Below are positions 18,829 through 39,788 of a stretch of DNA of 64,000 nt, one piece after another. The stretch's first letter is position 1; each line of letters begins with the position of its first letter. The stretch is from Treponemataceae bacterium. Lineage in GTDB: Bacteria > Actinomycetota > Coriobacteriia > Coriobacteriales > Coriobacteriaceae. The stretch lies in assembly GCA_963602825.1 (NCBI GenBank), contig CAVCKO010000013.1, positions 64 through 64,063 on the forward strand, written 5' to 3'. Position numbers and translations under genes: made by a program. The notes beneath the pieces are model-generated. The model saw nothing but the letters and a program-made list of their open reading frames with translations, had not been told where the DNA came from and ran no database searches.

Positions 18829-18835
18829 GCCCTCG

Positions 18836-18904
18836 AAGTTGCGGTGGAATAGTTCCTGGATGGCCCTTCTGGCTACATTTCAGGAACTATTTCACCGCAA
18901 GTTA
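18836..18904 (+). repeat. Palindromic REP-like element, left island border
   Basis: TTGCGGTGGAATAGTTCC...GGAACTATTTCACCGCAAGTTA; same-orientation copy at 39711-39778. Confidence 0.85.
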
Positions 18905-18970
18905 TTGGGCGGTTTGGATGGGAGGCGGTATTCTATTCTTTGTCGAGAACAATGTGAGAAAGAAGGCCCC

Positions 18971-19837
18971 ATGCCCGATATCATTCGTATCAGCGATACA
19001 CGGCTCGAGGAGCTTATTGCCGAGGACGTCCCCTATATCGATTTGACGACGCATATCCTGGGAATTGGTGACACGCCCGGCGCCATGGAGTATTACACGC
19101 GCGAGGACTGCGTGCTCTGCTGCACGGAGGAGGTTGCGCGCATGGCCGCCATGCTCAACCTGACGGTTGAGTGGTTTGAGCCTTCGGGCACCAAGGTCAA
19201 AGCCGGGCAGTCCTTTATGCGCGTGAACGGCACAGCCGCCAATTTGCATCTGCTGTGGAAGGTCGGCCTGAATATGTTCGACCACTACTCGGCCGTGGCG
19301 ACCAAGACGCGCAAGATGGTCGATGCGGCGCATGGCGCCAATCCCCTGTGCGAGGTGCTCACCACGCGCAAGAGCACGCCGGGCAACAAAGACCTGCTGA
19401 CCAAGGCAATCGTTGCGGGCGGGGCATTCCCGCACCGCATGGGCCTGTCCGAGACCGTGCTCGTGTTCGACAACCATACCAAGTTTATGACGGCGCCCTC
19501 CGGGGCGACGGGGCTCGACGCATTTATCGAGCTGTTGCCTCAGGTCCGTCGTCGTTGCATTGAGAAGAAACTGTTTGTGGAGGCAAACGCCGACGATGCG
19601 CGCCGACTGGTGAAGGCCGGCGTCGATGGCATCCAGTTTGACAAGGTTCCGGTTGCCGAACTGGCGGCGCTTGTGGAAGAGCTGCACGGGATCGATCCCC
19701 ATGTCTCTCTGGTGGCGGCGGGTGGCATTCGCCCCGACAACGCTGCCGAGTATGCGGCAACCGGCGTCGACGGCCTCGTGACCACGTCGTGCTTTACGGC
19801 AAGGCCCGTCGACATGAGCGTCAAGATGTTCGCCTAG
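18971..19837 (+). CDS. modD: ModD protein (NadC/QPRTase-like)
   Basis: IAEDVPYIDLTTHILG, TTRKSTPG, GGAFPHRMGLSETVLVFDNH, IQFDK, AAGGI; the Q-x-DK and SETVLVF features fit ModD rather than NadC. Confidence 0.88.
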   Translation: MPDIIRISDTRLEELIAEDVPYIDLTTHILGIGDTPGAMEYYTREDCVLCCTEEVARMAAMLNLTVEWFEPSGTKVKAGQSFMRVNGTAANLHLLWKVGLNMFDHYSAVATKTRKMVDAAHGANPLCEVLTTRKSTPGNKDLLTKAIVAGGAFPHRMGLSETVLVFDNHTKFMTAPSGATGLDAFIELLPQVRRRCIEKKLFVEANADDARRLVKAGVDGIQFDKVPVAELAALVEELHGIDPHVSLVAAGGIRPDNAAEYAATGVDGLVTTSCFTARPVDMSVKMFA

Positions 19838-20024
19838 CGCAACAGTCGGGGGTTCGTCAATGACCTGACGCCTGTATGCGCCGCTGCCGCTCGCGGAAAT
19901 AATTTCATTCGACCAAAACAATCTGTTTTGAAAGTCTGATGCGTCTACCTGCGAAAATAGATGTATCAGACTTTTTGTTTGAGTTTGCTTGTCCTGCCGT
20001 TGACGGAATCGGCCTTATATTCTC

Positions 20025-20053: not shown

Positions 20054-20104
20054 TCCACAGACTATCGCCATATTGGTGAGATGCTGGAGGAAGGAAGTGA
20101 GAGC

Positions 20105-23100
20105 ATGGCTAAATGCTCCGAGCGGGCCGGTAACGGCCTGGTGAAATGGAATTGGAAGGGAAGGTTGAGCTGCTTTGGCAGGCTTGCAACGGTTGCGGCG
20201 CTAACGGTCACCATGACGACGCCGACGCTTTTTGCTGGCGAGATTGCCTATGCAGAGACGTTGAGCCAAGATACGGTCGCGGCTCAGGCGGCTTCCGGCT
20301 CGACAAGCGATGCGGATCAGTATCGTCACGGTACCGTCCAAATCGACGCCGATACCGCCAAGGATGGCGTCATCACCCTTAAGAAGGGCCAGACGGCGAC
20401 GATCAGGGTGTCGCCGTATATCCACAAGCAGTACAAGGGCTGCGGCAAGACCGGCTGTCCTGAGAATTGCGAGGCAGAGCACGGTGTTGAGTGCTTTGTA
20501 AAGGGTATGGGTTGCAAGTGCGACCATACTCCGGTCGATCGCCAGGCCAAGGTTACGACGACCATCGACAATCAGGATGTCGTCAAGGCCGGCGACGTCG
20601 TGGCCGATAAGGACTGGAGCAACACCAACACCGATCTTAAGAAAGACGACGCCTACGTCACCAAGAACGGCACCATCACGCTGACTGCCGAGTCCGTGGG
20701 CACCGCGCGGGTTACGGTCGCCGCCGAGACCGACGAGAACGGTGACATCAATAACGCATCCGGCAACACCTCGACCCTGCTCGAGCACTGGCACCCCGCG
20801 ACCAAGACCTACACGGTCAAGGTCGAGAGCGATGAACTCTCCCAGGACGAGAACGGCACCTACGTTATCTCGAACGCATCTGACTACGCTAAGTTCGTTG
20901 AGAAGGTTAATGCTGGCGAGTACAACCTGAACGCCAAGCTCACCGCCGACATTGCGCTCGAGGACGGCAAACTGCCGACCATCTGCACCGCCAAGAGCGA
21001 GGCCACGGCGTTCTCGGGCACGATTGACGGCCAGGGCCACAAGATCTCGGGTATCACGTCGTTCTCCGCCACGAGCGCCCCGGCTCTGGTGGGCTACCTT
21101 AACGGCGGCACCATCAAGAATCTGACGCTCGAGGGCACGGCCAAGGTCACATATATGACTGGCGCTTTCGTCGCCAACGCTTATGCGGGCACCATTGAGA
21201 GCTGCACCAATGCTGTTGCCCTGACGTCGACCAAGGACGTCGCCGGCATCCTGGGCGGTCAGGTGTTTAAGTCGACAGGTGAGGTTAAAATTACCTCCTG
21301 CAAGAACAATGCTGCCGTTAAGACAACCGGTAATTCGAGCGTCGCTGCGGGCATTGCGGCGGTCTCTAACAACGGCCCCTCTCTTGCGATTTCGAATTGC
21401 GAGAACTCGGGTGCTATTGAGTCTGCTAAGACTGCGGCGGGCGGTATTGTCGGCAAAACCGGCGGTAACGCTCTTACGGTTAAGGGCTGCTCTAACAAGG
21501 GCACGGTGACCGTTGGTGGCACTGGTGTGGCTGGCGGCCTTGTTGCCAAGATCGAGGGCGGCAAGGGTAGCGTCGTAGTCTCGAATAGCTACAATGCCGG
21601 CGAGATCAAGAGCAGCAACACTGGCGCTGCTACTGGCGGTCTCGTTGGACAGTCGGTGACGAGCACTAATAGCGTCAAGGTGAGCAACAACTTCAACGCT
21701 GGCAAGATTACGGTTGCCGATGGCGAGAATGCCAAGGCCGGTGCCGTGTTCGGTTACATCAGCGCGAGCGGTGCGGGTACCACTACCGCCGAGAACGTCT
21801 CTTATCTTAAGGGTGACCTTAAGGGCGTTGGCACAAATAAGAAGGATGACGTGACTGTTGCCGAGAAGACGGCCGACGAGCTTGCCTCTGAGGATTTTGC
21901 CAAGTCTCTTGGTTCCGACTTTAAGATGGGCTATCAGTCCGGTCACCCGATTCTGTCTTGGGAACCCGACGAGCAGGCTCCGGTCAAAGATCCGGTGATT
22001 AAGGCCGACCAAAAGATTCAGCTGCGCCAGTCCGGCGATACGAGCAGTGTCGCTGTAGCGATCGAGGGCGGTACCGACGAGTGGGCTGCTGCGGTTACGT
22101 CGATTAAGGTTACGCCCGTTAAGGGCGACAAGCGTGGCGACACCACGGAGGTCTCCGGCGACCGCATCACCGCTGCAAGTAACTCGATTAAGGTTACGCG
22201 CGATGATTCGAATCCGGTCTTTATCATCGGTGACAACGACGAGTTCAACGCTGGCGCTATCAGCGTTCCCTCTCGCCGCGGTTCGAAGACCTACCCCAAC
22301 TCCAAGCAGTATGAGGTTGTCATTTCCGCCGAGGGGTACAACGATGTGACCGGAACGGTCAGCTTCTATTCCGGAACCTCGAAGACCTTTAAGATCATCG
22401 TCGACGAGGACGGCGACACGTCTACAACCGACGACCAGACGGTCAAGGGTGAGTGGACCGAGGACCAGCTCAAGGCTATGTCCGGCTACGGTTTCTACAA
22501 TGGTTCTTCCCAGTGCGGCATGACCGGGTTCCGCACATTCTCCGGTCACGGTGTTCCGGTCGAGGACCTGATGGAGGCCGCCGGCGTGGAGCCGTCGGAG
22601 AAGGATTCCTACCTCATCGATACCGCCGATCACTATGGCAACAAGCAGACCTACGAGTCGCTCTTTGGTGTCGACCGCTACTTCCTGCAGTCGATTTATA
22701 CCGATAAGGACGTCAAGGACACCTACGCCAAGCTCGTGAAGTCTGACGATGAGGCCGGCTCGACGATTGAGCTGCGCAAGCTGCTCGCATCCAAGGCGGT
22801 GGAGGAGAAGTCCACCGTTAAGCCGATGATCGCGGTCGACTACAACGAGGCCGTGCTGAGCGGCGATGACGTCGCGACCGCGACGCTGCCGGACGCCCTG
22901 AACACGAAGCTCAGCACCACGACGGCGCTCGAGAACCGCTATCGCTTTATCTACGGTATCAAACTCGCCAAGGATGACTGCACGGTCACGTTTAACGCGA
23001 ACGGTGGCAGCGACGTCGCGAGCCAGACGGTTCAGTCGAACCTGATGACTTCGACCGAGAACACGACGTGGTCTTCTAGCTATTGGGTCTATGCGCTTTA

Positions 23101-26100
23101 CGTCTTCCCGAACAAGGGCAAGGGCACCACGGAGGACGCCAACCCCGAGAAGCTGACGGTTCCTGAGAATCCGACGCGCGAGGGCTACACCTTTGCCGGT
23201 TGGTATACCAAGGACGGTACCGAGACCGGTGACTGGGGCGAGAAGTTCGACTTTACGGCCAACAGCGGCACCGTCGATCAGGATACTCAGCTCTATGCCA
23301 AGTGGCATGTCGATAGCGAGACCGTCTCGCAGACCGGCGAGACCGCCCAGGCCTATCGCGAGGCCCAGTACGGCGAGCCGCCCGCGGGCGACTCTAGCAA
23401 CGCTGGTCAGCATGTCAAGGTGACGGTCGCTTTTGACGGTCCGGTTACCGTTACCGACCAGGCTGCTCTCATCAACAGCCTCAAGTTCTCCGTCAGCGGT
23501 GGCGAAAATAGCACGCTGACCGCTACGGCCGACGGCAATAACCTGGTGCTCGATGTTCAGCTTGGCTTTGCGCTTATGGCGGGCTCGCTTAACGTTTCTG
23601 CTGCAGGCGATGACGGCATCCTCGATGGTGTCACCGTCGATGGCAAGCCCGTTAAGCTCGACAAGATCAAGACCTCGGTCGATACCGGCCTGGCCTTTGA
23701 GGCCGTGAGCGTGGTCAAGGGAACGAAGGACACGCCTGCCAGCACCACCTACAAGGTGACCCATGGCGCTAACGTGCGTTCCATGAACCATATCGTGTGG
23801 CTCACCAATAACGGCAAGGGCACCAAGGGCAGCTCCATCCTTGCTAACACCGCCGATTACTCACAGTCCACGTCCGCACATCACCACATGTGGTTTAAGT
23901 TCACCAACCTGGACTCTGCAAAGAGCATCGTAAGCAATGCGTCCGAGTCCCTTGATGCAGCCGGCTACACCGTGATCGACAACGGCGACGGCACCTTTAC
24001 CATCACCGCCAAGGCTGCCAAGCAGGGCGAGATCCTGGGCGCCGCCAACTACACCGATTCGTTCTTTAACGCGACCGGCATCAAGCTGGGCGAAGACGTC
24101 GAGGACGCCGCTCTGCCCACCGATGCCCTCTCCTGCAATCTCGGTATGAGCTTCCCCGAGAAGGCCAGCCAGGTCTCCACGTCCATGGGTCGTTACCATG
24201 GCGGCAAGACCACGTTCTCGCTGACGCCGTCTGCCGATGCGCTGGCCGACTATCAGGAGACGCACGAGGGCGCCGACACCAAGTCCATGCTCAACGACTG
24301 GATCTCTAACATCACGTCCGTGACCATCGACGGCACCACGCTCGAGGGCAAGGCCTTTGACGAGTGGAAGGACCAGCTCACCAACGCGACCGACGACGCC
24401 GGCAAGCTTAATTACTATGAGCTCACCGCCGGTGGTAAGTCCGCCACGCTGACGCTGCCCATCGCCCTGTTTGACACGTCGCAGGAGAAGAGCACCAAGA
24501 ACATCGTCATCGAGTCCAAGGGCTTTAGCACCGTGTCCGGTGACGTGACCTTCCGCAGCCTCAACTCCAACGAGGTTGTCGTGCGCATCCTGAGCGCCGA
24601 TGGCTCCAAGGTCGAAAAGACCACCACGCTCACCATGGACCAGCTTAAGAACCTGCCGGTCCAGAGCGGCTACACCACGGCCGCTAACTGCGGCATGGCC
24701 GGCCTGCGCACCTACTACAGTGAGGGCGTCCTGCTGACCGACGTGCTCAAGGCCGCCGGTGTGAACTTTAACTCCGGTATGACCCTCAAGGTCCGCGTGA
24801 ACGACCAGCTCCAGAGCAACGGCAACGGCACTACGACCGAGGACGGTTATTGGAGCCAGTCCACTTGGACCTATGACGAGCTCATGGGTACTGCCCGCTA
24901 CTATTACCCGGCTATGTGGGACAACACGACCAAGTATGACGAGCTGGGCGGCAAGACCATCTACGAGGTACTCTCCGAGAACAAGAACGCCTGGAAGGGC
25001 GACGACGAGCAGGCGCAGTTCCTGCGCAAGAAGCTCGCCGAGACCGAGCAGCAGGTGAACCCGATCCTCGCCTGGAGCTGGAACGAGAGTGTGCCCTACT
25101 TTGGTGGCACCAACCCCACGGGCTCCTACGATGGCTACAGCCAGCAGCTCGGCATGCGCTTCCTCTATGGCCTGAAGGCCGATGCGAACGGCATCCCCGT
25201 TGACGACAACACGACGTTTGCCAACACCTACGGCGTGTTCGGCATCGATATCCTCGGTGGCACCGAGGTCACCGAGCCCTCCGTCGACACCGACGTTGCG
25301 GTTAAGGGCAACGCCGCCGCCGACATTTCCGACGCTGCCAAGGACCAGGCCAAGCAGGCCGCCGGCGACATCTACAACGATGTTAAGAACGCCAATACCC
25401 CGAGCGGCATGTCCAAGGACGATGCAAAGAAGCTCGCCGATGTGGCTGCGGCCGCCGACGGCGATGCCGGCGATAAGGTCAAGATGGAAATGACCCTTAA
25501 GGTCGATTCCAAGAAGGCCCAGGATGTTAAGGACGACGCTGCCAAGGTCGAAAATGCCGTCAAGGGTAGCGACTATGCATACTTTGACGTAACTCCCACG
25601 GTAAAGATGACGGTGTTCGATAAGAACGGTGCCGTTAAGCAGCAGTCCGAGGACGTTGAGCTTTCCGAGCTTCCGCAAAACGTGAGCATCGCCATCAAGG
25701 TCGATCCCGCCCTGCTTAAGAAGTTCGTGCGCATCGCTCACGTTCACGATGGCAAGGTGACGTTTGTGACGCCGCAGTCCATCGACCGCAAGAACGGCAT
25801 CGTGACGATCTCGCTTAAGGACTTCTCGACCATCGCGGTCGTCGCGAGCGACAAGGCAAATGTCACTATCGATGGCGTGGGCAGCTTCGATGTGACCTAT
25901 GGCGACAAGATCTCCAAGCCGGCCGACCCCACCAAGGACGGCTACACGTTTGGTGGCTGGTATGCCGACAAGGACTGCACGATCCCGTTTGACTTCGACA
26001 GCCCGGTGACCGAGGCGGACGGCGATATTCACATCTATGCCAAGTGGACCAAGAACGAGTCCACGACGCCCGATACGCCGAAGGGCGATAAGACGAAGGA

Positions 26101-26266
26101 CGATAACGGCAAAAAGGCCGATGATGCGGCGGCAAAGAAGACCGCCGACAAGGGCACCCTCGCCAATACGGGCGACCGCACCTTCGCCATTGCCGGTATG
26201 TGTGCTCTGGCCGGTATGGTTGTGATCGGTATCGCTGTGGCCCTGCGCCGCAAGAACGCCCGATAA
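20105..26266 (+). CDS. Giant sortase-anchored surface protein: six-Cys Ig-like domain, GLUG-like beta-helix, 2x [Shr-HID/DUF1533-like + sulfite-oxidase-fold-like], HxH domain, InlB B-repeats, LANTG anchor
   Basis: Signal peptide ending IAYA; CGKTGCPENC...CF...CKC; repeated GGIVG/GGLVG; WxxxITSxxI...IxAEGY; CGM...GVxxxDxxxAAG twice; PTREGYTFAGWY; LANTG-TM-RRKNAR; AAGGAAG RBS before ATG 20105. Confidence 0.88.
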   Translation: MAKCSERAGNGLVKWNWKGRLSCFGRLATVAALTVTMTTPTLFAGEIAYAETLSQDTVAAQAASGSTSDADQYRHGTVQIDADTAKDGVITLKKGQTATIRVSPYIHKQYKGCGKTGCPENCEAEHGVECFVKGMGCKCDHTPVDRQAKVTTTIDNQDVVKAGDVVADKDWSNTNTDLKKDDAYVTKNGTITLTAESVGTARVTVAAETDENGDINNASGNTSTLLEHWHPATKTYTVKVESDELSQDENGTYVISNASDYAKFVEKVNAGEYNLNAKLTADIALEDGKLPTICTAKSEATAFSGTIDGQGHKISGITSFSATSAPALVGYLNGGTIKNLTLEGTAKVTYMTGAFVANAYAGTIESCTNAVALTSTKDVAGILGGQVFKSTGEVKITSCKNNAAVKTTGNSSVAAGIAAVSNNGPSLAISNCENSGAIESAKTAAGGIVGKTGGNALTVKGCSNKGTVTVGGTGVAGGLVAKIEGGKGSVVVSNSYNAGEIKSSNTGAATGGLVGQSVTSTNSVKVSNNFNAGKITVADGENAKAGAVFGYISASGAGTTTAENVSYLKGDLKGVGTNKKDDVTVAEKTADELASEDFAKSLGSDFKMGYQSGHPILSWEPDEQAPVKDPVIKADQKIQLRQSGDTSSVAVAIEGGTDEWAAAVTSIKVTPVKGDKRGDTTEVSGDRITAASNSIKVTRDDSNPVFIIGDNDEFNAGAISVPSRRGSKTYPNSKQYEVVISAEGYNDVTGTVSFYSGTSKTFKIIVDEDGDTSTTDDQTVKGEWTEDQLKAMSGYGFYNGSSQCGMTGFRTFSGHGVPVEDLMEAAGVEPSEKDSYLIDTADHYGNKQTYESLFGVDRYFLQSIYTDKDVKDTYAKLVKSDDEAGSTIELRKLLASKAVEEKSTVKPMIAVDYNEAVLSGDDVATATLPDALNTKLSTTTALENRYRFIYGIKLAKDDCTVTFNANGGSDVASQTVQSNLMTSTENTTWSSSYWVYALYVFPNKGKGTTEDANPEKLTVPENPTREGYTFAGWYTKDGTETGDWGEKFDFTANSGTVDQDTQLYAKWHVDSETVSQTGETAQAYREAQYGEPPAGDSSNAGQHVKVTVAFDGPVTVTDQAALINSLKFSVSGGENSTLTATADGNNLVLDVQLGFALMAGSLNVSAAGDDGILDGVTVDGKPVKLDKIKTSVDTGLAFEAVSVVKGTKDTPASTTYKVTHGANVRSMNHIVWLTNNGKGTKGSSILANTADYSQSTSAHHHMWFKFTNLDSAKSIVSNASESLDAAGYTVIDNGDGTFTITAKAAKQGEILGAANYTDSFFNATGIKLGEDVEDAALPTDALSCNLGMSFPEKASQVSTSMGRYHGGKTTFSLTPSADALADYQETHEGADTKSMLNDWISNITSVTIDGTTLEGKAFDEWKDQLTNATDDAGKLNYYELTAGGKSATLTLPIALFDTSQEKSTKNIVIESKGFSTVSGDVTFRSLNSNEVVVRILSADGSKVEKTTTLTMDQLKNLPVQSGYTTAANCGMAGLRTYYSEGVLLTDVLKAAGVNFNSGMTLKVRVNDQLQSNGNGTTTEDGYWSQSTWTYDELMGTARYYYPAMWDNTTKYDELGGKTIYEVLSENKNAWKGDDEQAQFLRKKLAETEQQVNPILAWSWNESVPYFGGTNPTGSYDGYSQQLGMRFLYGLKADANGIPVDDNTTFANTYGVFGIDILGGTEVTEPSVDTDVAVKGNAAADISDAAKDQAKQAAGDIYNDVKNANTPSGMSKDDAKKLADVAAAADGDAGDKVKMEMTLKVDSKKAQDVKDDAAKVENAVKGSDYAYFDVTPTVKMTVFDKNGAVKQQSEDVELSELPQNVSIAIKVDPALLKKFVRIAHVHDGKVTFVTPQSIDRKNGIVTISLKDFSTIAVVASDKANVTIDGVGSFDVTYGDKISKPADPTKDGYTFGGWYADKDCTIPFDFDSPVTEADGDIHIYAKWTKNESTTPDTPKGDKTKDDNGKKADDAAAKKTADKGTLANTGDRTFAIAGMCALAGMVVIGIAVALRRKNAR

Positions 26267-26280
26267 GGGCACGACGATGT

Positions 26281-26353
26281 AATCGGGGCATTTGAGTGTG
26301 CCCCGATTGCGGGAAAGCCTGGGGGAGGTATGCCGTGTGGCATGCCTCCCTTT
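26281..26353 (+). promoter_or_regulatory. Two intra-operonic hairpins (mRNA stabiliser or leaky terminator)
   Basis: AATCGGGGCA...TGCCCCGATT and GGGAGGTATGCC...GGCATGCCTCCC-TTT. Confidence 0.6.
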
Positions 26354-26378
26354 GGGCGTATATGACAAGGAGAAGATC

Positions 26379-27824
26379 ATGAGACGTATGGGACGAATCG
26401 GCCGCGTTCTGGCGGCGGCAATCGCCGGCGGCGCGCTGGTCGCCACAACGGTGCCGTCGGTTCCGGCATTTGCCTATTTCAACTTTGGCACGGTTTCGGT
26501 TGCGCCGGGCGCAAGCTCGCTTTCCGTCGTCGCCGGCGGTACCGCGTCGACCAACGTCTCGGTCTCTCCCTCGAGCCATGCGCAAACGCAAGGATGCGGC
26601 ATGGCACAGTGTCCCCAGGTCTGCAACGGCGACGGCGCCATCGAGGCTGGTTACAGCTGCTTTGACGCCAACGGCCAGTGCACGTGTGCGGGTACGGCAT
26701 ATACGACGTACACGCCCAACGTGAGCTGCGTCTCGAGCAACGCCGGTGTTGCCAGCGCCTATATGAGCGGCAACACGTTAGTGGTAACTGGCAGATCTGC
26801 GGGCACTGCGACGATTTCCATTTCGGCCTCGCTGCGTCAGTGGTCGACGGGGTCGGCATACGTGACGGTTAACGTCTCGGCACCTCAGCAGTCGAGCGGC
26901 GGCCAGCAGTCGAGCGGCAATCAGCAGTCCGTCGGCGCACAGAGCGGCTCCGCCAAAAACGAAGGCACGGTCAAGGCCAACTCCGCGGGTATCCCCGAGG
27001 CGGCCAAGGCGACGGAGTCAAAGTCCGACGAGCTCAACGAGCAGACGGTTGAGTCCGAGGGCGGTACCGTTGTCATCGTCGAGAACAACTCTCATCTCAA
27101 CACGGCCGAGGAGCTCAAAAAGATTGCGGGCAAGGAAAACACCCAGCTGGTGATTTGGGCGGGCGCATCGTCCGACCAGCCCGATTATTCCTGGACGTTC
27201 CGTGGCGAGGATGTAAACGCCGACGACCCCAACCTCGACTTCGACCCCACCATTAAGGTGTCCGAGCAGGGCGAGGGCACGGCTGCGAATCTGACCAAGC
27301 AGGCCAAGGATTCGCGCGTGCTCGACTTTGCCTACAAGGGCAAGCTGCCGGCAAAGGCTTCGATCTATGTTAAGGCCGGCTCCAAGTATCCGGACGAGAC
27401 CACGCTTTCGCTCTTTAGCTACAACGGCAAGGACCGCGTGTTTAAGAAAGCTCAAGACGACGGCTGCAAGGTCTCCAACGGCTATTTCTCTTTTGAGACC
27501 GATAAGGGCGCGACGTTTGCGGTCTCGACCGATGACCTCGCTTCGTATGAGGTGCGCCAGGAGAACACGCCTCAGGCCGCTAAGAAGCAGAAGGCCGCCG
27601 AAGATAAGGCGGCACAGTCCGCTTCGAGCAGCAATACGCTCGTATACGGTGCTGCCGCCGTGGTCGTAGCGGCTGTCGTTGCCGTTGCGGCCGTAGCGCT
27701 GCACCGCAAGAAGAGCGCCGCTGCGAAGGCCGACCCCAAGGACGCTCCCGTTCAATCGGATACGGCGGATGAGGCAACGGATGAGAACGAAGAATCGGAG
27801 AAGGGCAGTTCGAATGACGAGTAA
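26379..27824 (+). CDS. Exported, C-terminally anchored protein with six-Cys Ig-like domain (paralog A)
   Basis: Signal ending PAFA-YFN; CGMAQCPQVC...CFDANGQCTC; SSNAGVA Big_2-like motif; C-terminal TM plus RKK; AAGGAG RBS. Confidence 0.85.
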   Translation: MRRMGRIGRVLAAAIAGGALVATTVPSVPAFAYFNFGTVSVAPGASSLSVVAGGTASTNVSVSPSSHAQTQGCGMAQCPQVCNGDGAIEAGYSCFDANGQCTCAGTAYTTYTPNVSCVSSNAGVASAYMSGNTLVVTGRSAGTATISISASLRQWSTGSAYVTVNVSAPQQSSGGQQSSGNQQSVGAQSGSAKNEGTVKANSAGIPEAAKATESKSDELNEQTVESEGGTVVIVENNSHLNTAEELKKIAGKENTQLVIWAGASSDQPDYSWTFRGEDVNADDPNLDFDPTIKVSEQGEGTAANLTKQAKDSRVLDFAYKGKLPAKASIYVKAGSKYPDETTLSLFSYNGKDRVFKKAQDDGCKVSNGYFSFETDKGATFAVSTDDLASYEVRQENTPQAAKKQKAAEDKAAQSASSSNTLVYGAAAVVVAAVVAVAAVALHRKKSAAAKADPKDAPVQSDTADEATDENEESEKGSSNDE

Positions 27825-30045
27825 TCGTCTTGCGGGTCCTTTCGCCCACGACATCTTTGAGGCGTTTCGCAGCGCCCTCCCGGTTTTGCTTGCGGGGCTT
27901 GTGACGTTTTGCGTGCTGGTGCCCGTATCGACCTCGATGGTCAACGCGTTCTCGATCTTCAACGTCAACTTTACGCACGACCAGCTCAAGTACCAATTTT
28001 ATGCACAGTCGCTTGGCCCTGTGGTAGATGCGGCGTGCGTTGTGCTCGGCATGGCGCTCGCCCTTGCGCTCTTTCGCTTTGTGCTCGAGAAGCGCTCGAC
28101 AACAGCGTATTTTTCGCTCGGCATCGACCGCCGCGGCCTGTTTTTCTCGCGCGCCCTGGTTGGACTTGTCGGCATTGTAGTTGTTATCGGTGTTCCGCTT
28201 GCGGTATCGCTGGCGCTCAACAGCATGGCACTCGGTATCTACGAGGGGGAGCTTGCGGCCTTTGCCTATGTGGTGGCCGGTTATATCGCCGTGGCGCTGG
28301 TGTCGTTTGCCGTGACGGCGATCGCGACTATGTTTGCAGGCACGCTGTTTGAGGCGCTGGCGTTTAGCGTCATCCTTTTGGGCGGCGTGACCGTGGTTTT
28401 GTGGGGCATCGGCGCCGTGAGCAAGTTCTTGCTGGTGGGCGATGCCATGGGCATCACGCTGTACGACCAGGACGTGACGGTGGCACCGTCGCTTTTGGAG
28501 TCCCTGTCGTGGACCAACCCTGTCGCGTTTTTCCTGACGGAGGGCGCGAGCAAACAGTTTTTCCAAGCGGTCGATCCGGTGTACTATCCCGAGCCCGGCT
28601 CCTGGCAGCTGGTGGCGGGCTGGGTTGTCGTATACCTCATACTGTCCGTGATTGGCGCCGTGGCGCTTGTGCGTCGCTCGGGCGAGCAGGCCGAGATGGC
28701 GGGAAAATCTCCTGTGCTGTCGCTTGCCGCCGTCTGCGTCATCGGGTTTGCCGTGGTCGCGGCGACGGTGACGGCGCTCGGCTCTGTCGATATTGCCGTT
28801 GCCCTCGTGGCCGCTGCGGCGCTTTTCGTGCTGGTTTCGCTGGCGCTGCTCTTTGGGCCCTTCCGCGGGCGTGCGTCGCGTCGGGTGGTAGTTGCCTCCG
28901 TCGCCGCGGAGCTTGTCGTGATGGCCGCGGCGATCGGCGCGATTGCGGCGGGCGGCTTCGGGTACGCGAGCTATATTCCGTCCACCGAGGACGTGGAAAG
29001 CGTCGAGATTTCGTATGACGGATCACCGAGCTATCTCTCGAGCAATTTCTCCGGCGTGTCCGGCGGTACGTCCTATTACTTCACGGCCACGCGAAGCTAC
29101 GGCGAGGCGTCGACGGTCGACTCGATTCGCTCCATCCATCAGCAGCTCATTGCATCGGCCCGCGATGCATGGGAGACCGATACCGAGAGCTTTGAGCAGA
29201 CGGTCGTACCCTACGACATCTCGATCACCTACCATCTTAAAGACGGCGGCACGGCCGTGCGCTATTACCGCCAGGCGACAGTCGGCGAGCTTTCGGCTCT
29301 TTGCGCCCTGGATAACGATGCGCATGCCAAGGTGCTGCGCCGGGCTGTCGTGACGGGGGATACCGCCGAGCTTACCAAGGACGAAGTGTCCGACCTGTGC
29401 GAGTCGCCCTCCTATGCGGCGTATCGAAGCGGTGCGCTATATGTTGCGGACGGCATTCTCAACCAGATTGTGCCGGTCGACCTTACCGCGGCCGATCGCG
29501 CTTCGCTCCAAAAGGCCATAGCCGACGACCTCGACCGCCTTTCGGCAAGCGACATCTATGCTCCCAAGTCGCAGACGCGTGCGGTGATTATGTTCACGAC
29601 GGCATCCGAGGTCGATGTCGCCTCGTTTGGCTATTCGTTTAACAATGCCCTTTCGTATGTGACGGATAGCTGGACGAGCACGATGGCTTGGCTCGAGGAC
29701 CACGGCGTGCTGGCACAGATCGGCAATGGCGAGATCGACCCTCGCGTCATTGAGGGTATGACGTTTGAGGCGGATGACCCCTATGCTTCCGTGAACGCCG
29801 TCACCTCGCCGCAGGCCCGTTACTTTATGGGCTATCGCAAGGAGAATGCGGGCAGTTTTTGGGTCACGCAGGACTTTGGCGCGCAAAAGACGGTGTCGGA
29901 CCAGGAGGATATCGCAAAGATCGTGCCCAACCTCCGCATGGGGTATGGCATGGACGGCGGGTACCTGGTCCAGCTTAAGCTGCGCGGCCTCGAGGCGTAT
30001 GTGTACTGCTATCTTCCGGCCGAGCTTGCGCCGGATGACCTGTAA
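27814..30045 (+). CDS. Large multi-pass ABC permease (exporter type) with C-terminal soluble domain
   Basis: About 10 hydrophobic segments, YFSLGIDR...F EAA-like loop, ~350-aa hydrophilic C-terminus; directly upstream of an ABC ATPase. Confidence 0.8.
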   Translation: MTSNRLAGPFAHDIFEAFRSALPVLLAGLVTFCVLVPVSTSMVNAFSIFNVNFTHDQLKYQFYAQSLGPVVDAACVVLGMALALALFRFVLEKRSTTAYFSLGIDRRGLFFSRALVGLVGIVVVIGVPLAVSLALNSMALGIYEGELAAFAYVVAGYIAVALVSFAVTAIATMFAGTLFEALAFSVILLGGVTVVLWGIGAVSKFLLVGDAMGITLYDQDVTVAPSLLESLSWTNPVAFFLTEGASKQFFQAVDPVYYPEPGSWQLVAGWVVVYLILSVIGAVALVRRSGEQAEMAGKSPVLSLAAVCVIGFAVVAATVTALGSVDIAVALVAAAALFVLVSLALLFGPFRGRASRRVVVASVAAELVVMAAAIGAIAAGGFGYASYIPSTEDVESVEISYDGSPSYLSSNFSGVSGGTSYYFTATRSYGEASTVDSIRSIHQQLIASARDAWETDTESFEQTVVPYDISITYHLKDGGTAVRYYRQATVGELSALCALDNDAHAKVLRRAVVTGDTAELTKDEVSDLCESPSYAAYRSGALYVADGILNQIVPVDLTAADRASLQKAIADDLDRLSASDIYAPKSQTRAVIMFTTASEVDVASFGYSFNNALSYVTDSWTSTMAWLEDHGVLAQIGNGEIDPRVIEGMTFEADDPYASVNAVTSPQARYFMGYRKENAGSFWVTQDFGAQKTVSDQEDIAKIVPNLRMGYGMDGGYLVQLKLRGLEAYVYCYLPAELAPDDL

Positions 30046-30051
30046 GGCGGA

Positions 30052-30786
30052 GTGATGATCGAAGTCTCCCATATCTCTAAAAGCTTTAGGTCGTATCGGG
30101 CCCTGGACGATATTTCGTTTACCGTCGAGAACGGATCGGTGTATGGCCTGGTGGGCTACAACGGTGCCGGCAAGACGACGCTGCTCAAGATTATCGCTGG
30201 GGTCTATCGTGCCGATAGCGGTACGGTGACGATCGACGGCGTTGCGGCCGGGCAGAACCGTACGTCCGATCAGGCCCTGTTCATCGTGGCCGACGAGCCG
30301 TATTTTCTGCCGCAGGCGACACCGCTCACCATGCGTTCGTTTTATAAGGGCTATTATCCGGCTTGGTCGGATGAGGTTTTTGAACGCCTGCTCGACATCT
30401 TTCGGCTCGATGCGCGCGCGAAGGTCGCCGGCTTTTCGAAAGGCATGCAGCGTCAGCTGGGCATTTTGCTCGGCTTTGCGACGGGTGCCCAGTCGCTGTT
30501 GCTCGACGAGAGCTTTGATGGCTTAGACCTTGCCAAGCGAAACCTGCTTAAGCGCCTGCTGAAGCAATATGCGGCGGAAAAGGGCGCCAGCGTAATCCTG
30601 TCCTCGCATAACCTGCGCGAGCTCGAGGACGCGGCGGACCATCTGGGCATGATCAAGGAGAACCGCCTGACATTTAACGGTAGTGTGGCCGAGGTCCATG
30701 CTCAGTATCCCGACGCCTCGCTGGAGGAGATCTTCCTTTCCGAGGGAACGGGCGGCGATATCGACACGACCGGGCTGTTTGCATAG
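30052..30786 (+). CDS. ABC transporter ATP-binding protein (ABC-2/exporter type)
   Basis: GYNGAGKTT, FSKGMQRQ, LLDESFDGLD, SSH. Confidence 0.93.
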   Translation: MMIEVSHISKSFRSYRALDDISFTVENGSVYGLVGYNGAGKTTLLKIIAGVYRADSGTVTIDGVAAGQNRTSDQALFIVADEPYFLPQATPLTMRSFYKGYYPAWSDEVFERLLDIFRLDARAKVAGFSKGMQRQLGILLGFATGAQSLLLDESFDGLDLAKRNLLKRLLKQYAAEKGASVILSSHNLRELEDAADHLGMIKENRLTFNGSVAEVHAQYPDASLEEIFLSEGTGGDIDTTGLFA

Positions 30787-30811
30787 GGATATTCACGGGG
30801 AAGGTGGCGCG

Positions 30812-32152
30812 ATGACGCGCAAGAACATATGGAAGTCGATGGCCGCGATGGCACTGTGCCTCGCGCTGGCGAGTGCTGCGGGCCTTGTTGTCGCGACGCC
30901 GGCATTTGCCTATTTCAACCGCGGTGCGGTCAAGGTCGAGGCGGCGTCGACGTCGATGGAGCTCCAGGCCGGAAAGAAGGGGAGCCTCACCATTAAGGTG
31001 ACGCCGTCTTCGGATAAGCAGACCGAGGGCTGCGGTATGCCCAAATGCCCGCAGGGATGCTCGGACAGCTGCTTTGACAAGAACGGGCAGTGTACGTGCG
31101 CCGGTAAGAAATACAAGACCTATCACGCGCAGGTGACGGCGACGTCGAGCAATCCTGGGGTTGCTGTCGCTACGGCCGATGCCAAGGGCGTGACAGTCTA
31201 CGCCAAGACGGCGGGGGAGACGACCATCACCCTTAAGGCGTCGCTTCCCCAATATACGGATGCCACCTGCGAGATTAAGGTGCACGTGAGCGGGACCGCG
31301 TCCGAGGCGGGCGGTTCGTCAGATGCGTATACCGAGATACCCGCGGCAGCGGAGGTGTCGAGTGAGCCCGTCGAGGACGAGCTCGATATCAATAAGGCGA
31401 CGATTATGGGGCGCGCGGTTTGGCAGGTGCGTATTAATGGGGCCACCGACCCCACGGCGCGCATGCGCGAGATGGCGGGCACCGATGGCGACCTGACCTT
31501 TTGGGCGGGAGACACCTACTTTCACCCCGACTATTCGCTGACGTTTGGCGGTAAGCATTTTAGTGCCGATGAGGTGACCGAGACCAACCCCACCATTACC
31601 GTCGAGCGTACCGCGACAGGCGAGCTGACGCAGCCACTTGCCGGGCTTGACAAGTTCTTGGTGCTGCGCTTTGCCCAGCAGGGCGCGTTTTGTTCCACGG
31701 GAAAGGCCTATGTGCTCGCCGACGACTTGTTTGGCGATAACGACGAGCTGGGGCTCTTTACCTATGATGCCGATACGCAGACGTTCTCGCGCGTCGATGA
31801 CTCCGATATCGCGATGGTTGGCGGCTACGTGGCGTTTTCGGTGAGCGAGGGCGGGACCTACGTGGTGTCGACGCGTGACCTGCAAAACGATGCGTCCCAG
31901 GCGGTGAAGCACTCGGACAGTGCCAAGAAGGATATGGCCGAGGGCTGCTCCGACATGATGGATATGGGAAGCATGGATATGTCTGATGCCGACGACGCGG
32001 ATGCGACCGATAGCGGCATGCCGCTTGTCGTTCCCGCCGCCGTTGCCGTGATTGCTGTTGCAAGCGTTGCCGTGGCGCTCGTGCTGCGTCGCCGCAAGGG
32101 CGCTGACGGTACGGGCGCATCGGGCGCAGATAGCCCCAAGCGAAAGGAATAG
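30812..32152 (+). CDS. Exported, C-terminally anchored protein with six-Cys Ig-like domain (paralog B)
   Basis: PAFA-YFN signal, CGMPKCPQGCSDSCFDKNGQCTC, SSNPGVA, WAG...PDYS shared with paralog A, Met-rich patch, TM plus RRRK. Confidence 0.85.
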   Translation: MTRKNIWKSMAAMALCLALASAAGLVVATPAFAYFNRGAVKVEAASTSMELQAGKKGSLTIKVTPSSDKQTEGCGMPKCPQGCSDSCFDKNGQCTCAGKKYKTYHAQVTATSSNPGVAVATADAKGVTVYAKTAGETTITLKASLPQYTDATCEIKVHVSGTASEAGGSSDAYTEIPAAAEVSSEPVEDELDINKATIMGRAVWQVRINGATDPTARMREMAGTDGDLTFWAGDTYFHPDYSLTFGGKHFSADEVTETNPTITVERTATGELTQPLAGLDKFLVLRFAQQGAFCSTGKAYVLADDLFGDNDELGLFTYDADTQTFSRVDDSDIAMVGGYVAFSVSEGGTYVVSTRDLQNDASQAVKHSDSAKKDMAEGCSDMMDMGSMDMSDADDADATDSGMPLVVPAAVAVIAVASVAVALVLRRRKGADGTGASGADSPKRKE

Positions 32153-32155
32153 CCG

Positions 32156-35100
32156 GTGCCAACTCGCCTTCGACAACTGGTGAGGCGCTTCGCCGTAGTG
32201 GCGGCGTGCGCAACGGCTCTCGCTTTGGCGGGGGCCGCGGGCTTTGGTGCGCCGATGGCGTTTGCCGACGGCATGGGCAGCATGCAAAGCATGGGCGGTA
32301 AGGCGAGCTCGGGCACTGCATCGAGCGATGCGGCACCCCAGGTGTCCTCGAAAAAGAAATCAAAGGGTACCATGCACGTCGCGGTCGGCTTGGACCGTCT
32401 GGTGGGCACGAGTGCCCCGGGCAAAGATTCCAAGATGGATCGCGAGACCATGGGCCGCGTCTTTCCCGGTCTGTTGGATATCGAGACCGATCCGGTAGCG
32501 ATTAACGTGGGCAAAGAATGCTCCATGAAGGATCTTTGCGGCATCGATCCCTGTACCTGCGGAAAGCCCGATGCGTGGGGGCATTGTGCCTGCGCGGGCT
32601 TTGAGGAAGTTGCGCCGACACTCTCTATCGAGTCGAGCGACGATGGCGTGGCAAGCGCGGAGGAGTTCGCGGGGCGCTCGTGGATCGTTCCACATGGCAC
32701 CGGCACCGCGGTCATCACCGTGCGCGCTTCGCTGGTCCACTACAAGACGGTTGAGTATCGGTTTGCGCTGACGATTGAGCCGTTCGGCTTTATCGATGCG
32801 CTGCTGATTGCCGCCGCGCTTGCGCTTGTCGTGCTGGTGGTGCTGGCTGTTTGGCTGATCGGCGGTTGCCTGCTGCGCTGCCTTCGCCGCATGGCGCGAC
32901 GCTGCGGCGAGCGTCGGCGCGTGGTCGCCCAGCTTAAGCACGACCATCCCGCCCGCTGGCGCGAGCTTCTTGCCGAGCGGGATGACGGCCCATTTGGCGG
33001 CAGGCGCTTTTTTGGGCGTGGCCGCCGTCCGCACCGTCCAAGGATGACGTTGCATGAGCTTGGGTTTGCCGCGCGCGATGCCATCCTGCCGTGCCTGGCC
33101 GCCATGCTTGTGCTGGTCGTTTTGGTGCCCGTTTCGACGACCGTGGTGCCGAGCATTTCTATCTTTAATATCGATTACACCCATGAGCAGCTCAAGTACC
33201 AACTCTTTGCGCAGGGCTTGGGCCCCGCGGTATCGGCTTGCTGCGTTGTCCTTGGTGCTGCGCTCGGCTTTGCCCTCTTTGGATTTGTGCTGGTGCGTCA
33301 GGCCGTGACGGCGCACTTTTCGGTTGGAATGGCACGCGCACGGATTTTCGCCGTGCGGTTTGCCGCCGGTATCGGCGCGTGTATTTTGGCCGTCGGGGTC
33401 CCCTTTGCCGCGTCACTCGTTTTGAACATAGCCGCGCTTGGCTTGTATCCCGGCGAGCTGGGAGCGTTTGCATACGTTGTGTGCGGTTATGCGCTCACGG
33501 CCGCCGTGTCGTTTGCCATCTCGTCCGCCGCGCTACTGCTCGTCGGGTCGCGCGCCGAGGCCGTGGCATTTGCCGCCACAGGCGTGCTCGGCGTGACCGT
33601 TGTGCTTTGGGCGGCAGGCGTGCTGCTGCAGCAGTTGTTGCCCGGATGTGCCTGGGGCGTCGCGGCGTACAACCAGACAACGCCGATCGAGCCTTCGCCG
33701 CTGTCGCTTCTTGCGTCCTTCAATCCCATATTGTTCTTTGCCCAGATGGGCGCCGAAAAGCAGTTCTTTGCGGCGCTGCATCCGGTGTACTACCCGGTGC
33801 CCGGCAATATGTTGCTGCTTGTGGCCTGGGGCGCCGTTCTGGTGGCGCTGGCCCACGTGGGGGCCTGGCTTATGGAGCATCGTCGCGGCGAGCAGGCCGA
33901 AATCGCTGGCCTGACGCCGTTCGCGACCTATACGGTCTCCGCGGTTGCCGGCCTGGTAGCGTTTGCCTGTGCGCTCTCGTTGCTCGCTCACGCTGGTGCT
34001 CTTACGGCGACGGCTGTGGCGATTATTGGTTTTGCGGGCATCGCGGCAGCGGTGTTGCTCGGTCCCTTGCGCGGCAAGACGCATTCGCGCCGTGTTGCGG
34101 GCGTTGTCGCTGTTGAGTCCGCGGCGCTTATTGCCGTGTGCGCCCTGGTGGGGACCGGTTTCTTTGGCCTCACCGAGCAGCAGCCTGCGGCGGCCGATGT
34201 TTCGACGGTTGAGGTTTCGTGCGTGGGGTCGCCGGCATATATGACCGGTGAGTATCAGGGTGTGACGCACGGCGGTGCATACTATACGACCGCGTCGCGC
34301 AGCTATCGCTCGGCCTCGTCTATAAAGACTATTGAGGCCGCCGAGCGCCTGCTGCTTTCGGACGCCCATGAACAGCTGGGAGACGATTGTCTGCCGCTTG
34401 ACGTGACGATTCGCTATGCACGCAAGGACGGGCGGGTCATAACGCGCTATTACGCGAAGGTCTCGCGGGCGGCGTTCGATAAGCTCATCGAGCTTCAGGA
34501 CGATACCCATGCCCGCAAGCTCGAGGCGGCGGTTATTGCGGCCGATACCACAGGGCTCCAGCGAGATGACCGCGCGACGGTCGAGGCATCGCCACTCTTT
34601 GAGGTCTACAAGACAGGCGACGTCGCGCTTGCCGGTGCCGATCTTTCGGGCGCTCATAAGCTTTCACTTTCGGGCGCTGGCCGTGTCGAGCTCATGTCTG
34701 CACTGGCCGAGGACATGCGCGCCATGTCGGCTGACGACCGCTACGATGCCGCGGCACCAGTTCGGGCAACCCTTTTGGTCTCGACATCGATCGAACAGGA
34801 TATGGGGGCGTGCGGCTACTCGTTTAATTCCTCGGTCACCTATCTAACCGACGCGTACTCCAACGCGCTTGCATGGCTGCGGGGTCATGGCTATGTGGCT
34901 GATGATGAGGATGATGGTGCCGATGGCGTTGGCGCCGATTGGGCCTCTGTTACGCTTGAGCGCGATACGGCAAATCTAACAACACCTCTGAGCAGGTATT
35001 TTATGGGCTACCGTGCCGATGATCCCGATGAGTTTTGGTATGACGGCGTTACGGCGGCCGATCATGCGTCATCGTGCGTCGAGACCGACGATTCCGAGCT

Positions 35101-35263
35101 TATGGCACGTATCGCTCGGGCATCGCGCGCCGGCTGCCTTATGGACGGCGGCTATCTGGTGCGCGCGACGCGTGCCGATGGCGGGTACACGTATCTGTAT
35201 CTGCCCGCCGCCAACGTGACCGAGTCGCTGGAAGGGAGCATCGATGGCCTCTCAAACGAATGA
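32156..35263 (+). CDS. Fusion of a six-Cys Ig-like exodomain and a large ABC permease (paralog of 27814-30045)
   Basis: Signal peptide, CSMKDLCGIDPCTCGKPDAWGHCAC, TM, Arg-rich linker, then THEQLKYQ / PVYYP / RYFMGYR / MDGGYLV shared with the other permease. Confidence 0.82.
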   Translation: MPTRLRQLVRRFAVVAACATALALAGAAGFGAPMAFADGMGSMQSMGGKASSGTASSDAAPQVSSKKKSKGTMHVAVGLDRLVGTSAPGKDSKMDRETMGRVFPGLLDIETDPVAINVGKECSMKDLCGIDPCTCGKPDAWGHCACAGFEEVAPTLSIESSDDGVASAEEFAGRSWIVPHGTGTAVITVRASLVHYKTVEYRFALTIEPFGFIDALLIAAALALVVLVVLAVWLIGGCLLRCLRRMARRCGERRRVVAQLKHDHPARWRELLAERDDGPFGGRRFFGRGRRPHRPRMTLHELGFAARDAILPCLAAMLVLVVLVPVSTTVVPSISIFNIDYTHEQLKYQLFAQGLGPAVSACCVVLGAALGFALFGFVLVRQAVTAHFSVGMARARIFAVRFAAGIGACILAVGVPFAASLVLNIAALGLYPGELGAFAYVVCGYALTAAVSFAISSAALLLVGSRAEAVAFAATGVLGVTVVLWAAGVLLQQLLPGCAWGVAAYNQTTPIEPSPLSLLASFNPILFFAQMGAEKQFFAALHPVYYPVPGNMLLLVAWGAVLVALAHVGAWLMEHRRGEQAEIAGLTPFATYTVSAVAGLVAFACALSLLAHAGALTATAVAIIGFAGIAAAVLLGPLRGKTHSRRVAGVVAVESAALIAVCALVGTGFFGLTEQQPAAADVSTVEVSCVGSPAYMTGEYQGVTHGGAYYTTASRSYRSASSIKTIEAAERLLLSDAHEQLGDDCLPLDVTIRYARKDGRVITRYYAKVSRAAFDKLIELQDDTHARKLEAAVIAADTTGLQRDDRATVEASPLFEVYKTGDVALAGADLSGAHKLSLSGAGRVELMSALAEDMRAMSADDRYDAAAPVRATLLVSTSIEQDMGACGYSFNSSVTYLTDAYSNALAWLRGHGYVADDEDDGADGVGADWASVTLERDTANLTTPLSRYFMGYRADDPDEFWYDGVTAADHASSCVETDDSELMARIARASRAGCLMDGGYLVRATRADGGYTYLYLPAANVTESLEGSIDGLSNE

Positions 35264-36698: not shown

Positions 36699-37747
36699 TG
36701 GGTGGCGCAACCAAGCGGCGTTCTGCGCGTGCGGATGTGGGCGGCTTTTCTCAATCGCGCGCCGTCAAGCGACTGGCGCTGTTGGTCCTCGCGGCGATTC
36801 TCGTTGCCGGCCTTGCCTTCTCGCTCACCTTGGGTCGATATCGTATGGGGCTTGGCGATTTGGTCGCCGCGCTTGGCGGGTCCAATGAGGCCGCGCTCAA
36901 CGTGTTTTTGACCATTCGCTTTCCGCGCGTTGCCTGTGCCATGTTGGTGGGCTGGTCGCTGTCTGCTGCCGGCTGTGCCTACCAGGGCATTTTTAAGAAC
37001 CCAATGGTCTCGCCCGATCTGCTGGGCGCATCGGCGGGAGCCTGCTTTGGCGCCGCGCTGGCCATTTTGCTCTCGGGCAGCGGCCCGGCTATCGAGGTCG
37101 CGGCGTTTGTCTGCGGTATCCTGGCGGTCGTGTGTTCCTACACGCTCAGTGCCGTTATCGGGCGGCGCATGCGCGGCGTGCTCGTGCTGGTGCTGTCGGG
37201 GCTCGTGGTGGGCAACGTGTTCCAGGCTGGCGTTTCGGCCGTTAAGTTTTTGGCCGACCCCAACTCTCAACTCCCCGAAATCACGTTTTGGCTTATGGGC
37301 GGTTTGGCGTCGGTGCACGAGGGCGACTTGCTCTGGCTTGCGGTGGCCTGCGCGGTGGGTACGGTCGGTCTGCTCGCGCTGCGGTGGCGGCTGAACGTCA
37401 TGTCACTCGGTGACGAGGAGGCGGCCTCGCTTGGCATCGACGTGCGGCGGACGCGGGCACTCGTCGTGCTCTTCGCGACACTGCTTACGGCAGCGTCGGT
37501 GGCGGTCTCGGGCATGGTCGGCTGGGTCGGCCTTATCGTGCCGCACCTCGCTCGTTTTGTCGTGGGGTCGGACCATCGCTATCTCATGCCCGCAAGCATG
37601 TTGTTGGGCGGGTCGTTTCTCATGTTCGTCGACGATATCTGCCGCAGCGTATATACGACCGAGATTCCGCTTTCAATTTTGACGGCACTTGTTGGCGCGC
37701 CGCTCTTTGTGTATCTGATCTGTCGCGGCAAGCAGGGGAGGCTCTGA
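36698..37747 (+). CDS. FecCD/BtuC-family (type II) ABC importer permease
   Basis: IRFPRV, QGIFKNPMVSPDLLG-SAGA, FWLMGGL, LGDEEAASLG, GWVGLIVPHLAR. Confidence 0.94.
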   Translation: MGGATKRRSARADVGGFSQSRAVKRLALLVLAAILVAGLAFSLTLGRYRMGLGDLVAALGGSNEAALNVFLTIRFPRVACAMLVGWSLSAAGCAYQGIFKNPMVSPDLLGASAGACFGAALAILLSGSGPAIEVAAFVCGILAVVCSYTLSAVIGRRMRGVLVLVLSGLVVGNVFQAGVSAVKFLADPNSQLPEITFWLMGGLASVHEGDLLWLAVACAVGTVGLLALRWRLNVMSLGDEEAASLGIDVRRTRALVVLFATLLTAASVAVSGMVGWVGLIVPHLARFVVGSDHRYLMPASMLLGGSFLMFVDDICRSVYTTEIPLSILTALVGAPLFVYLICRGKQGRL

Positions 37748-39710: not shown

Positions 39711-39778
39711 CTAACTTGCGGTGAAATAGTCCCCGAGGGCCCTTCGGGCCGCATTGGAACTATTTCACCGCAAGTTAG
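39711..39778 (+). repeat. Palindromic REP-like element, right island border (may act as terminator)
   Basis: CTAACTTGCGGTGAAATAGT...ACTATTTCACCGCAAGTTAG; 22 bp identical to 18883-18904. Confidence 0.85.
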
Positions 39779-39788
39779 GGGTGGTTGC

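Follow-up and report, generated by a model that had tools for sequence, protein, structure and literature searches.

Two predicted sulfite-oxidase-fold domains on a putative Coriobacteriaceae surface protein: a possible receptor for Mo/W-pterin

Introduction

What would a gut anaerobe do with sulfite-oxidase-like domains displayed outside the cell? The question is raised by a 64,000-nucleotide stretch of contig CAVCKO010000013.1 (assembly GCA_963602825.1, deposited as a Treponemataceae bacterium and placed by GTDB in the Coriobacteriaceae), which we call the window. Next to modD, it holds a gene for a 2061-aa protein with two tandem modules, each an HID-like (DUF1533-like) domain followed by a domain predicted to adopt the fold of sulfite oxidase (SUOX). 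A sequence-only reading had offered two roles for these modules, extracellular molybdopterin enzymes or cofactor-scavenging receptors. We tentatively favor a receptor: the protein may be a Shr/Isd-like surface receptor for molybdenum/tungsten (Mo/W)-pterin that feeds a MolABC-like importer. The SUOX fold is known, the system is uncharacterised and the family variant is new.

Results

The two modules lie in a single open reading frame (ORF) with the following features.

20081..26266, plus strand: surface protein, 2061 aa, likely start 20105, with a Sec-type leader and a C-terminal sorting signal
20321..20830, plus strand: Cys-rich Ig-like (Big_2-like) domain, also in four downstream proteins
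22001..22378, plus strand: HID-like domain of module 1, sharing a family profile with the module 2 HID
22382..23113, plus strand: predicted SUOX-fold domain 1, whose last strand falls within the B-repeat insertion and whose Cys812 (22514) tops a long beta-hairpin
22970..23320, plus strand: InlB B-repeat interleaved with SUOX domain 1 (Z 9.3-10.2 to B-repeats, model residues 197-313)
23351..24115, plus strand: domain of unknown family with conserved R-x-M and H-x-H, also in a 484-aa protein
24275..24562, plus strand: HID-like domain of module 2 (PF07550; Z 5.4-5.8 to Shr HID)
24554..25261, plus strand: predicted SUOX-fold domain 2, Cys1537 (24689)
25889..26056, plus strand: second InlB B-repeat (PF09479, TIGR02543)
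26159..26266, plus strand: sortase-type signal by sequence features (LANTG, hydrophobic helix, basic tail)

The sequence-only reading of two tandem modules on a sortase-type protein holds at the level of motifs. Module 1 contains DEWAAAVTSIKV at 22076, VVISAEGYND at 22316 and CGM at 22514, the codon of Cys812; module 2 contains NDWISNITSVTIDG at 24293, IVIESKGF at 24503 and CGM at 24689, the codon of Cys1537. PMIA and PILA follow at 22823 and 25061, RFIYG and RFLYG at 22943 and 25157, and LANTG at 26159. The two SUOX-like domains, 26% identical over 190 aa (pair E 2e-14), are the only copies in the genome. Sortases are encoded in the genome, one of them inside the window at about 51469-52287, which makes the sorting signal plausible.

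Structure prediction assigns the SUOX fold to both modules. AlphaFold models built from alignments of 49 and 19 sequences reached pLDDT 92.2 and 88.9 for modules 1 and 2, and structural comparison matched each to the sulfite oxidase fold that the sequence-only reading had proposed. In a wide VIA search with module 1, the first 13 rows held 10 SUOX-family structures (Z 6.9-10.2) and three B-repeats, and lower rows had Z of at most 5.1. For module 2, VIA run on Foldseek's matches gave SUOX-family structures in all of rows 1-28 (Z 5.9-8.9), followed by four Shr HID rows (Z 5.4-5.8). The matches include PruR, SoxC, SorA, sulfite oxidase and MsrP, with PruR at or near the top for both modules; Foldseek itself, InlB aside, ranked PruR, sulfite oxidases and MsrP highest (all E > 0.001).

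Family-level sequence searches sit near or below their thresholds. Shr-like_HID (PF07550) barely passes in module 2 (22.6 bits against a cut-off of 22.3) and, with the Shr HID matches, bears out the proposed DUF1533-like fold there. Oxidored_molyb (PF00174) falls below its curated cut-off in both domains (17.9 and 15.6 bits versus 24), and NCBIfam has a model for neither the SUOX-like nor the HID-like domain. PDB sequence searches with domain 2, the family alignments, two homologues and the HID returned no SUOX or Shr match. A feature-based comparison in the Atlas ranked an Oxidored_molyb cluster (0.92, 37% of members) behind three unnamed ones and stayed below the recognition threshold.

Module 1 is longer than its motifs suggest. 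Its SUOX match runs beyond RFIYG to model residue 242-257, so that the last strand would lie in a loop (about 23087-23107) inserted in the InlB B-repeat. The B-repeat at 22970-23320 and SUOX domain 1 would thus be two interleaved domains. Upstream of module 1, a repetitive Gly/Asn-rich region at 20843-21970 with GG-I/L-V-G motifs varies among homologues; we take it to be GLUG-like.

The cysteine of the CGM motif is conserved and is predicted to occupy the Mo-ligand position. In both models it sits at the tip of a long beta-hairpin, the location that the PruR paper gives for the Mo-ligand Cys of SUOX enzymes; in PruR itself, according to that paper, the hairpin is shortened and Trp replaces the Cys (PMC11194511). 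A profile alignment of 69 family rows with MsrP and 28 canonical domains set Cys1537 on MsrP Cys146 (mature Cys102) with Prob 89.5 and E 2e-6, against 0.4 for a reversed control. Searching 1.84 billion representatives with the family profile found 176 proteins, 103 of them at E <= 1e-10, and the best 150 of the 176 were listed; 179 proteins were kept and 247 domain rows aligned, with Cys at the site in 165 and Asp in 39. Removing 83 rows with less than 75% profile coverage left 164 near-complete domains, 154 of which retain the Cys (67 of 77 after clustering at 60% identity); its position and its conservation both support the sequence-only reading. The nearest outside relatives are surface proteins with mostly Asp at the Cys site, a pattern that is circular because they were selected by the same profile.

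Other pocket residues are kept in part. The Cys-to-Gly spacing is 12, as in MsrP, in 61 of 67 domains, and an Asp (73 of 77) and an Arg (69 of 77) match canonical positions by motif. The lysine of the KW motif, mapped likewise, is Lys in 29 of 29 canonical sequences; in the family it is Tyr in 52 of 67 and Lys in 2. The aligned ranges of both modules begin only at sulfite oxidase residue 142-151 and MsrP residue 62-68 and the HID-to-SUOX linker has a median of 3 residues, so the N-terminal segment of SUOX enzymes is absent. In those enzymes this segment carries substrate and phosphate contacts; HID residues could substitute for it.

The family is built like a set of surface receptors. The HID-like domain lies directly upstream of the Cys domain in 132 of 150, and proteins with one, two and three SUOX copies number 95, 22 and 5. 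Among these 122 family proteins the HxH domain is fused in 72 and the Cys-rich Ig domain in 32, and 44 have a sortase-like anchor; SLH, CWB2, choline-binding and dockerin anchors also occur (50 proteins scanned). None of the 122 has a Tat-like motif, in agreement with the earlier remark that the signal peptide lacks a twin-arginine. In the R-x-M/H-x-H domain, R is conserved in 70 of 70, M in 65 of 70 and each H in 68 of 70. Copy number varies locally: Gordonibacter proteins have three SUOX copies, and other Collinsella records (L026:4861-7446, L027, L038-L040) have a shortened gene with the HxH domain and module 2 only.

The gene is the first of ten tightly packed genes (gaps of -20 to 112 bp). 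Behind it follow two genes for anchored six-Cys proteins, two for ABC-2-type permeases and one for an ABC ATPase, one for a Cys/HxH protein, and those of a type II importer. Together with modD the run forms an accessory block.

18829..18910, no strand: palindromic repeat, left edge of the block
18971..19837, plus strand: modD (ModD protein), first gene of the block (TIGR01334, 198.5 bits, cut-off 178.85)
19930..19975, plus strand: hairpin and T run after modD, likely terminator (-23.2 kcal/mol; not in the consensus terminator scan)
26292..27824, plus strand: membrane-anchored protein with six-Cys Ig-like domain, 510 aa (six Cys invariant in 12 of 12 aligned copies)
27769..30045, plus strand: ABC-2-type permease, about 10 transmembrane helices (JGI name on 2 of 54 homologues)
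30052..30786, plus strand: ABC ATPase (PF00005)
30683..32152, plus strand: paralogue of the 510-aa six-Cys protein
32156..35263, plus strand: Cys-rich Ig domain fused to an ABC-2-type permease
35244..36698, plus strand: membrane protein with Cys-rich Ig domain and HxH domain
36698..37747, plus strand: MolB-like type II ABC importer permease (best PDB match HI1471)
37747..38553, plus strand: importer ATPase (Pfam/NCBIfam scans)
38557..39693, plus strand: MolA-like binding lipoprotein (HI1472, E 1.9e-17)
39712..39781, no strand: palindromic repeat, second copy, right edge of the block

The importer resembles MolB/MolA most closely. Its permease matches HI1471 (E 2.9e-63) ahead of HmuU (2.7e-48) and BtuC (3e-32); for the lipoprotein, HI1472 is third of 13 matches, the two above it being named only "periplasmic binding protein". 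The sequence-only reading had pointed to modD as Mo context, and the importer, with Mop and ModABC in a Gordonibacter locus, extends that context. The likely terminator after modD suggests that the surface-protein operon has its own promoter. CxxCH is absent from five operon proteins, Pfam/NCBIfam scans of operon proteins found no cytochrome or MsrQ-like gene, and a flavinylation-like motif occurs in only 1 of 122 family proteins. Met-rich tracts are patchily distributed, occurring in 4 of 54 homologues of the permease.

Five operon proteins share a six-Cys loop inserted in an Ig-like domain (20321-20830, 26454-26882, 30902-31297, 32450-32779 and 35349-35693). In three of the five the loop starts with CGM, the tripeptide of the SUOX Cys site; we found no family describing such an insert. 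At the edges of the block, the palindromic element of about 70 bp has more copies in this and related genomes. A larE-like gene of the LarE sulfur transferase family (TIGR00268; 39789-40667, minus strand) is convergent with the operon, and we left it out of the block because it is encoded on the other strand and also occurs in relatives that lack the block. A Schlafen AlbA_2/RecG-C/HTH protein (16979-18679), encoded immediately to the left of the block, varies among relatives.

The block is rare. The closest named DNA to the window is in Collinsella genome records (88-92% identical), which makes a Collinsella-like gut actinobacterium the probable host, and the same block occurs in two Gordonibacter, Eggerthella sinensis, other Collinsella records and, rearranged on a short contig, a Paratractidigestivibacter record. 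Strong SUOX-domain hits were confined to 3 of 301 genomes of the class, with one marginal hit besides, and the ABC-2-type permease (27769..30045) occurs in the same three. Among the loci, many of them redundant, the gene has modD as its neighbour in 8 of 9 from genomes and 7 of 10 from metagenomes (the other three are short contigs); modD and the operon are jointly absent from all 10 same-genus loci with informative flanks, drawn from 15 same-genus genomes. Mop lies in Gordonibacter loci, one of which also has ModABC, and a divergent membrane LuxR regulator (11 predicted helices) lies upstream of the gene in both loci scanned, Gordonibacter and Eggerthella. Records labelled Acutalibacteraceae and Ruminococcus hinted at transfer to Clostridia, a reading that we rejected: identity to the window is 87-96% for L019 and L022 (EF-G 99%) and 96% for L020, so the labels are probably wrong.

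The carriers examined make their own molybdenum cofactor (Moco). The sequence-only reading had argued, from the lack of Moco genes in the window and of a twin-arginine in the signal peptide, that a cofactor would have to be acquired outside; a genome search found both moaA and moeA, and that argument is weakened. The genome encodes MoaA, MoaC-MobB, MoeA, a Mog-type protein, ModA and, just above cut-off, MoaE, besides two DMSO-reductase-family enzymes and a ModABC-type importer. moaC occurs in 266 of 301 sampled genomes of the class and in all carriers examined (this genome, G075, G121 and 5 of 5 further carriers), so the absence of Moco genes from the window carries no meaning, and Moco auxotrophy was rejected. 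With both supply and demand present the operon is accessory: the cell need not import cofactor, and only the Sec-exported domain must load outside.

Other Mo-related loci came to light alongside. Three other actinobacterial genomes encode secreted SUOX-fold proteins that lack the cysteine and lie downstream of Moco riboswitches (3 of 4 loci examined), next to ECF, Tup-type, MobA or MobB genes. L129:3007-10927 combines such a protein with an ECF transporter, a phosphodiesterase, MobB and a kinase; L128:3989-15436 has Tup-type and MobA genes, and L130:3440-8644 is a third such operon. These riboswitch operons are candidate cofactor import systems. At L131:7095-8711, adjoining a LuxR-family regulator, an Eggerthellaceae membrane protein fuses a multihaem-cytochrome-like part to a Cys-bearing Oxidored_molyb domain and, by its sequence, looks like a true enzyme. 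L005:4180-6450 is a gene like that of formate dehydrogenase H; it contains an in-frame TGA, likely read as selenocysteine, and precedes a hydrogenase-4-like cluster.

Discussion

The family is neither a SUOX enzyme, PruR nor Shr by the features tested, though it is partly like each. PruR (PDB 7kp2, 7kom, 7rkb) is likewise a bare SUOX fold without extra catalytic domains, Sec-exported and outside the cytoplasm; as described, it is a small soluble protein of Proteobacteria with a short hairpin and no Cys, and it signals to DcpA (PMC11194511). The family, in contrast, keeps the Cys and the long hairpin, has large insertions and is probably wall-anchored, in Gram-positive anaerobes and encoded beside transporters; no DcpA-type regulator was found among the neighbour genes scanned. 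With the SUOX enzymes (MsrP/YedY, SorA, SorT, SoxC, chicken SO) it shares the predicted core fold and Mo-ligand Cys position, C-x11-G as in MsrP, and the Asp and Arg, but by sequence it appears to lack the N-terminal segment, a Tat motif and a redox partner, and mostly has Tyr for the KW Lys. In the Shr/Isd haem relay, too, a surface receptor that pairs an HID with a cofactor-binding domain stands upstream of a type II importer (PMC9945957), with NEAT where this family has a SUOX-fold domain. Haemophilus influenzae molABC-modD (HI1469-HI1475; PMC3928620) also joins modD to an importer and supplies the closest permease, HI1471, and the closest named binder, HI1472; in the present block, surface proteins and ABC-2 permeases separate modD from the importer by about 16 kb.

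These likenesses suggest how a receptor might work. The layout of an HID, a cofactor-binding domain and a type II importer repeats that of the Shr/Isd relay, except that a Moco pocket seemingly stands in for NEAT. The protein would be exported by Sec as an empty domain and then sortase-anchored. Mo/W-pterin freed in the gut lumen by lysed microbes or food proteins would be bound outside the cell by the two SUOX-fold domains via the conserved Cys; the cofactor or its metal would be handed over via Cys-rich and HxH domains and imported by the operon's MolABC-like importer, a salvage route alongside the cell's own Moco synthesis. It is doubtful that gut anaerobes use such an Isd/Shr-like relay to take the intact Mo/W cofactor from other cells or food. 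In that version the HID would dock the donor protein, the SUOX domain would take and shield the cofactor on its Cys, Cys-rich carriers would move it across the wall, and the MolABC-like transporter would import it.

Several observations weigh against a Mo/W-pterin receptor. Foldseek gave no match at E <= 0.001 with either model and Z scores of 7-10 are middling; we credit the fold because two domains and a sequence profile agree. With the KW Lys replaced and the N-terminal segment absent, the pocket may not fit intact Moco, and auxotrophy cannot be invoked because the carriers examined make their own Moco. Neither the window nor 7 related loci nor 5 carrier genomes yielded a Moco riboswitch, and the riboswitch-linked SUOX-fold proteins score at most 4.2 bits against the family versus at most 9.3 for canonical enzymes; being no closer to the family than those enzymes, they serve as an analogy only. 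modD occurs in 27 of 301 class genomes versus the 3 that carry the system, and stands without the operon in 15 of 15 other modD loci examined. ABC-2 permeases are mostly exporters, and an uptake-only model leaves them unexplained. MolA, moreover, is described as a molybdate and not a pterin carrier (PMC3928620). On the other side, PruR demonstrates that a SUOX fold can work as an extracytoplasmic pterin binder (PMC11194511), and we credit the receptor-like build, with one to three copies, an HID upstream and interchangeable wall anchors.

Of the alternatives, one dispenses with the pterin: the SUOX Cys, the six-Cys loops and HxH would capture bare Mo or W, as oxyanion or, the gut being sulfidic, as thiomolybdate or thiotungstate, for a MolABC-type importer. 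The MolB/MolA-like importer with its modD, Mop and ModABC neighbours, the altered pocket and the many conserved extracellular Cys and His residues all fit, yet the full pterin-binding fold is kept with its Asp and Arg, a ModABC-type importer already exists in the genome, and we know of no oxyanion binder that uses Cys; we consider this unlikely. A surface molybdoenzyme would reverse the traffic, with the cell's own Moco exported via ABC-2, Cys-rich proteins loading it or relaying electrons, and the importer supplying metal or taking product. The conserved Mo-ligand Cys, the complete Moco pathway and an ABC-2 permease in exactly the three carrier genomes speak for it, as does the divergent membrane LuxR before the gene at the Gordonibacter and Eggerthella loci, a regulator class described as switching on catechol dehydroxylase genes in response to substrate (PMC9734109). 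The missing N-terminal segment, the Lys-to-Tyr change and the want of CxxCH, cytochrome, MsrQ-like, flavinylation and Tat features among the proteins scanned tell against it. An enzyme is therefore improbable, and the receptor half of the sequence-only proposal appears the better reading; we keep the enzyme alive because our preferred reading explains neither the ABC-2 permeases nor LuxR.

A ligand outside Mo/W biology is distinctly improbable. On this account the block would handle another soft metal or chelate (Cu, Ni or Co), or else a pterin other than Moco that serves as a nutrient or a signal, and the Mo neighbours would be partly incidental. CGM in both SUOX and six-Cys domains and the conserved M and HxH would suit a soft metal, FecCD-family importers carry varied chelates, and PruR binds non-Moco pterins (PMC11194511); Met-rich tracts, however, are patchy, and modD, Mop, ModABC and the MolB/MolA-like parts all indicate Mo/W. 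Very improbable, finally, is a Shr-like haemoglobin or haem receptor whose SUOX domains are repurposed haem binders or inert spacers. The HID fold and a type II importer whose second-best PDB match is HmuU would fit it, but NEAT (PF05031) was not found in the genome, three of four Shr alignments begin at residue 198, which may leave out the haem-capping R196/Y197, and strict conservation of the Cys argues against an inert spacer. Nothing beyond the predicted HID fold speaks for haemoglobin binding.

We found no description of this protein family, or of extracellular Mo/W-cofactor scavenging by bacteria, in the open-access literature, and none of five gene terms appeared in the supplement text (one file each) of PMC12771579 and PMC11887054. 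Pterin passage across bacterial membranes is itself stated to be unknown (PMC13259868), and molybdoenzymes of gut Coriobacteriia are described as transforming catechols and dietary polyphenols (PMC9734109). Piracy of intact cofactor, if true, would give bacteria a pathway for Moco uptake, and cofactor cross-feeding in the gut could then be tested directly. The family combines a defined operon with domains that are small, well folded and marked by one conserved Cys, and is present in the transformable Gordonibacter sp. 28C. Cofactor scavenging, surface metal capture or an externally loaded Mo enzyme would each put the sulfite oxidase fold to a new use.

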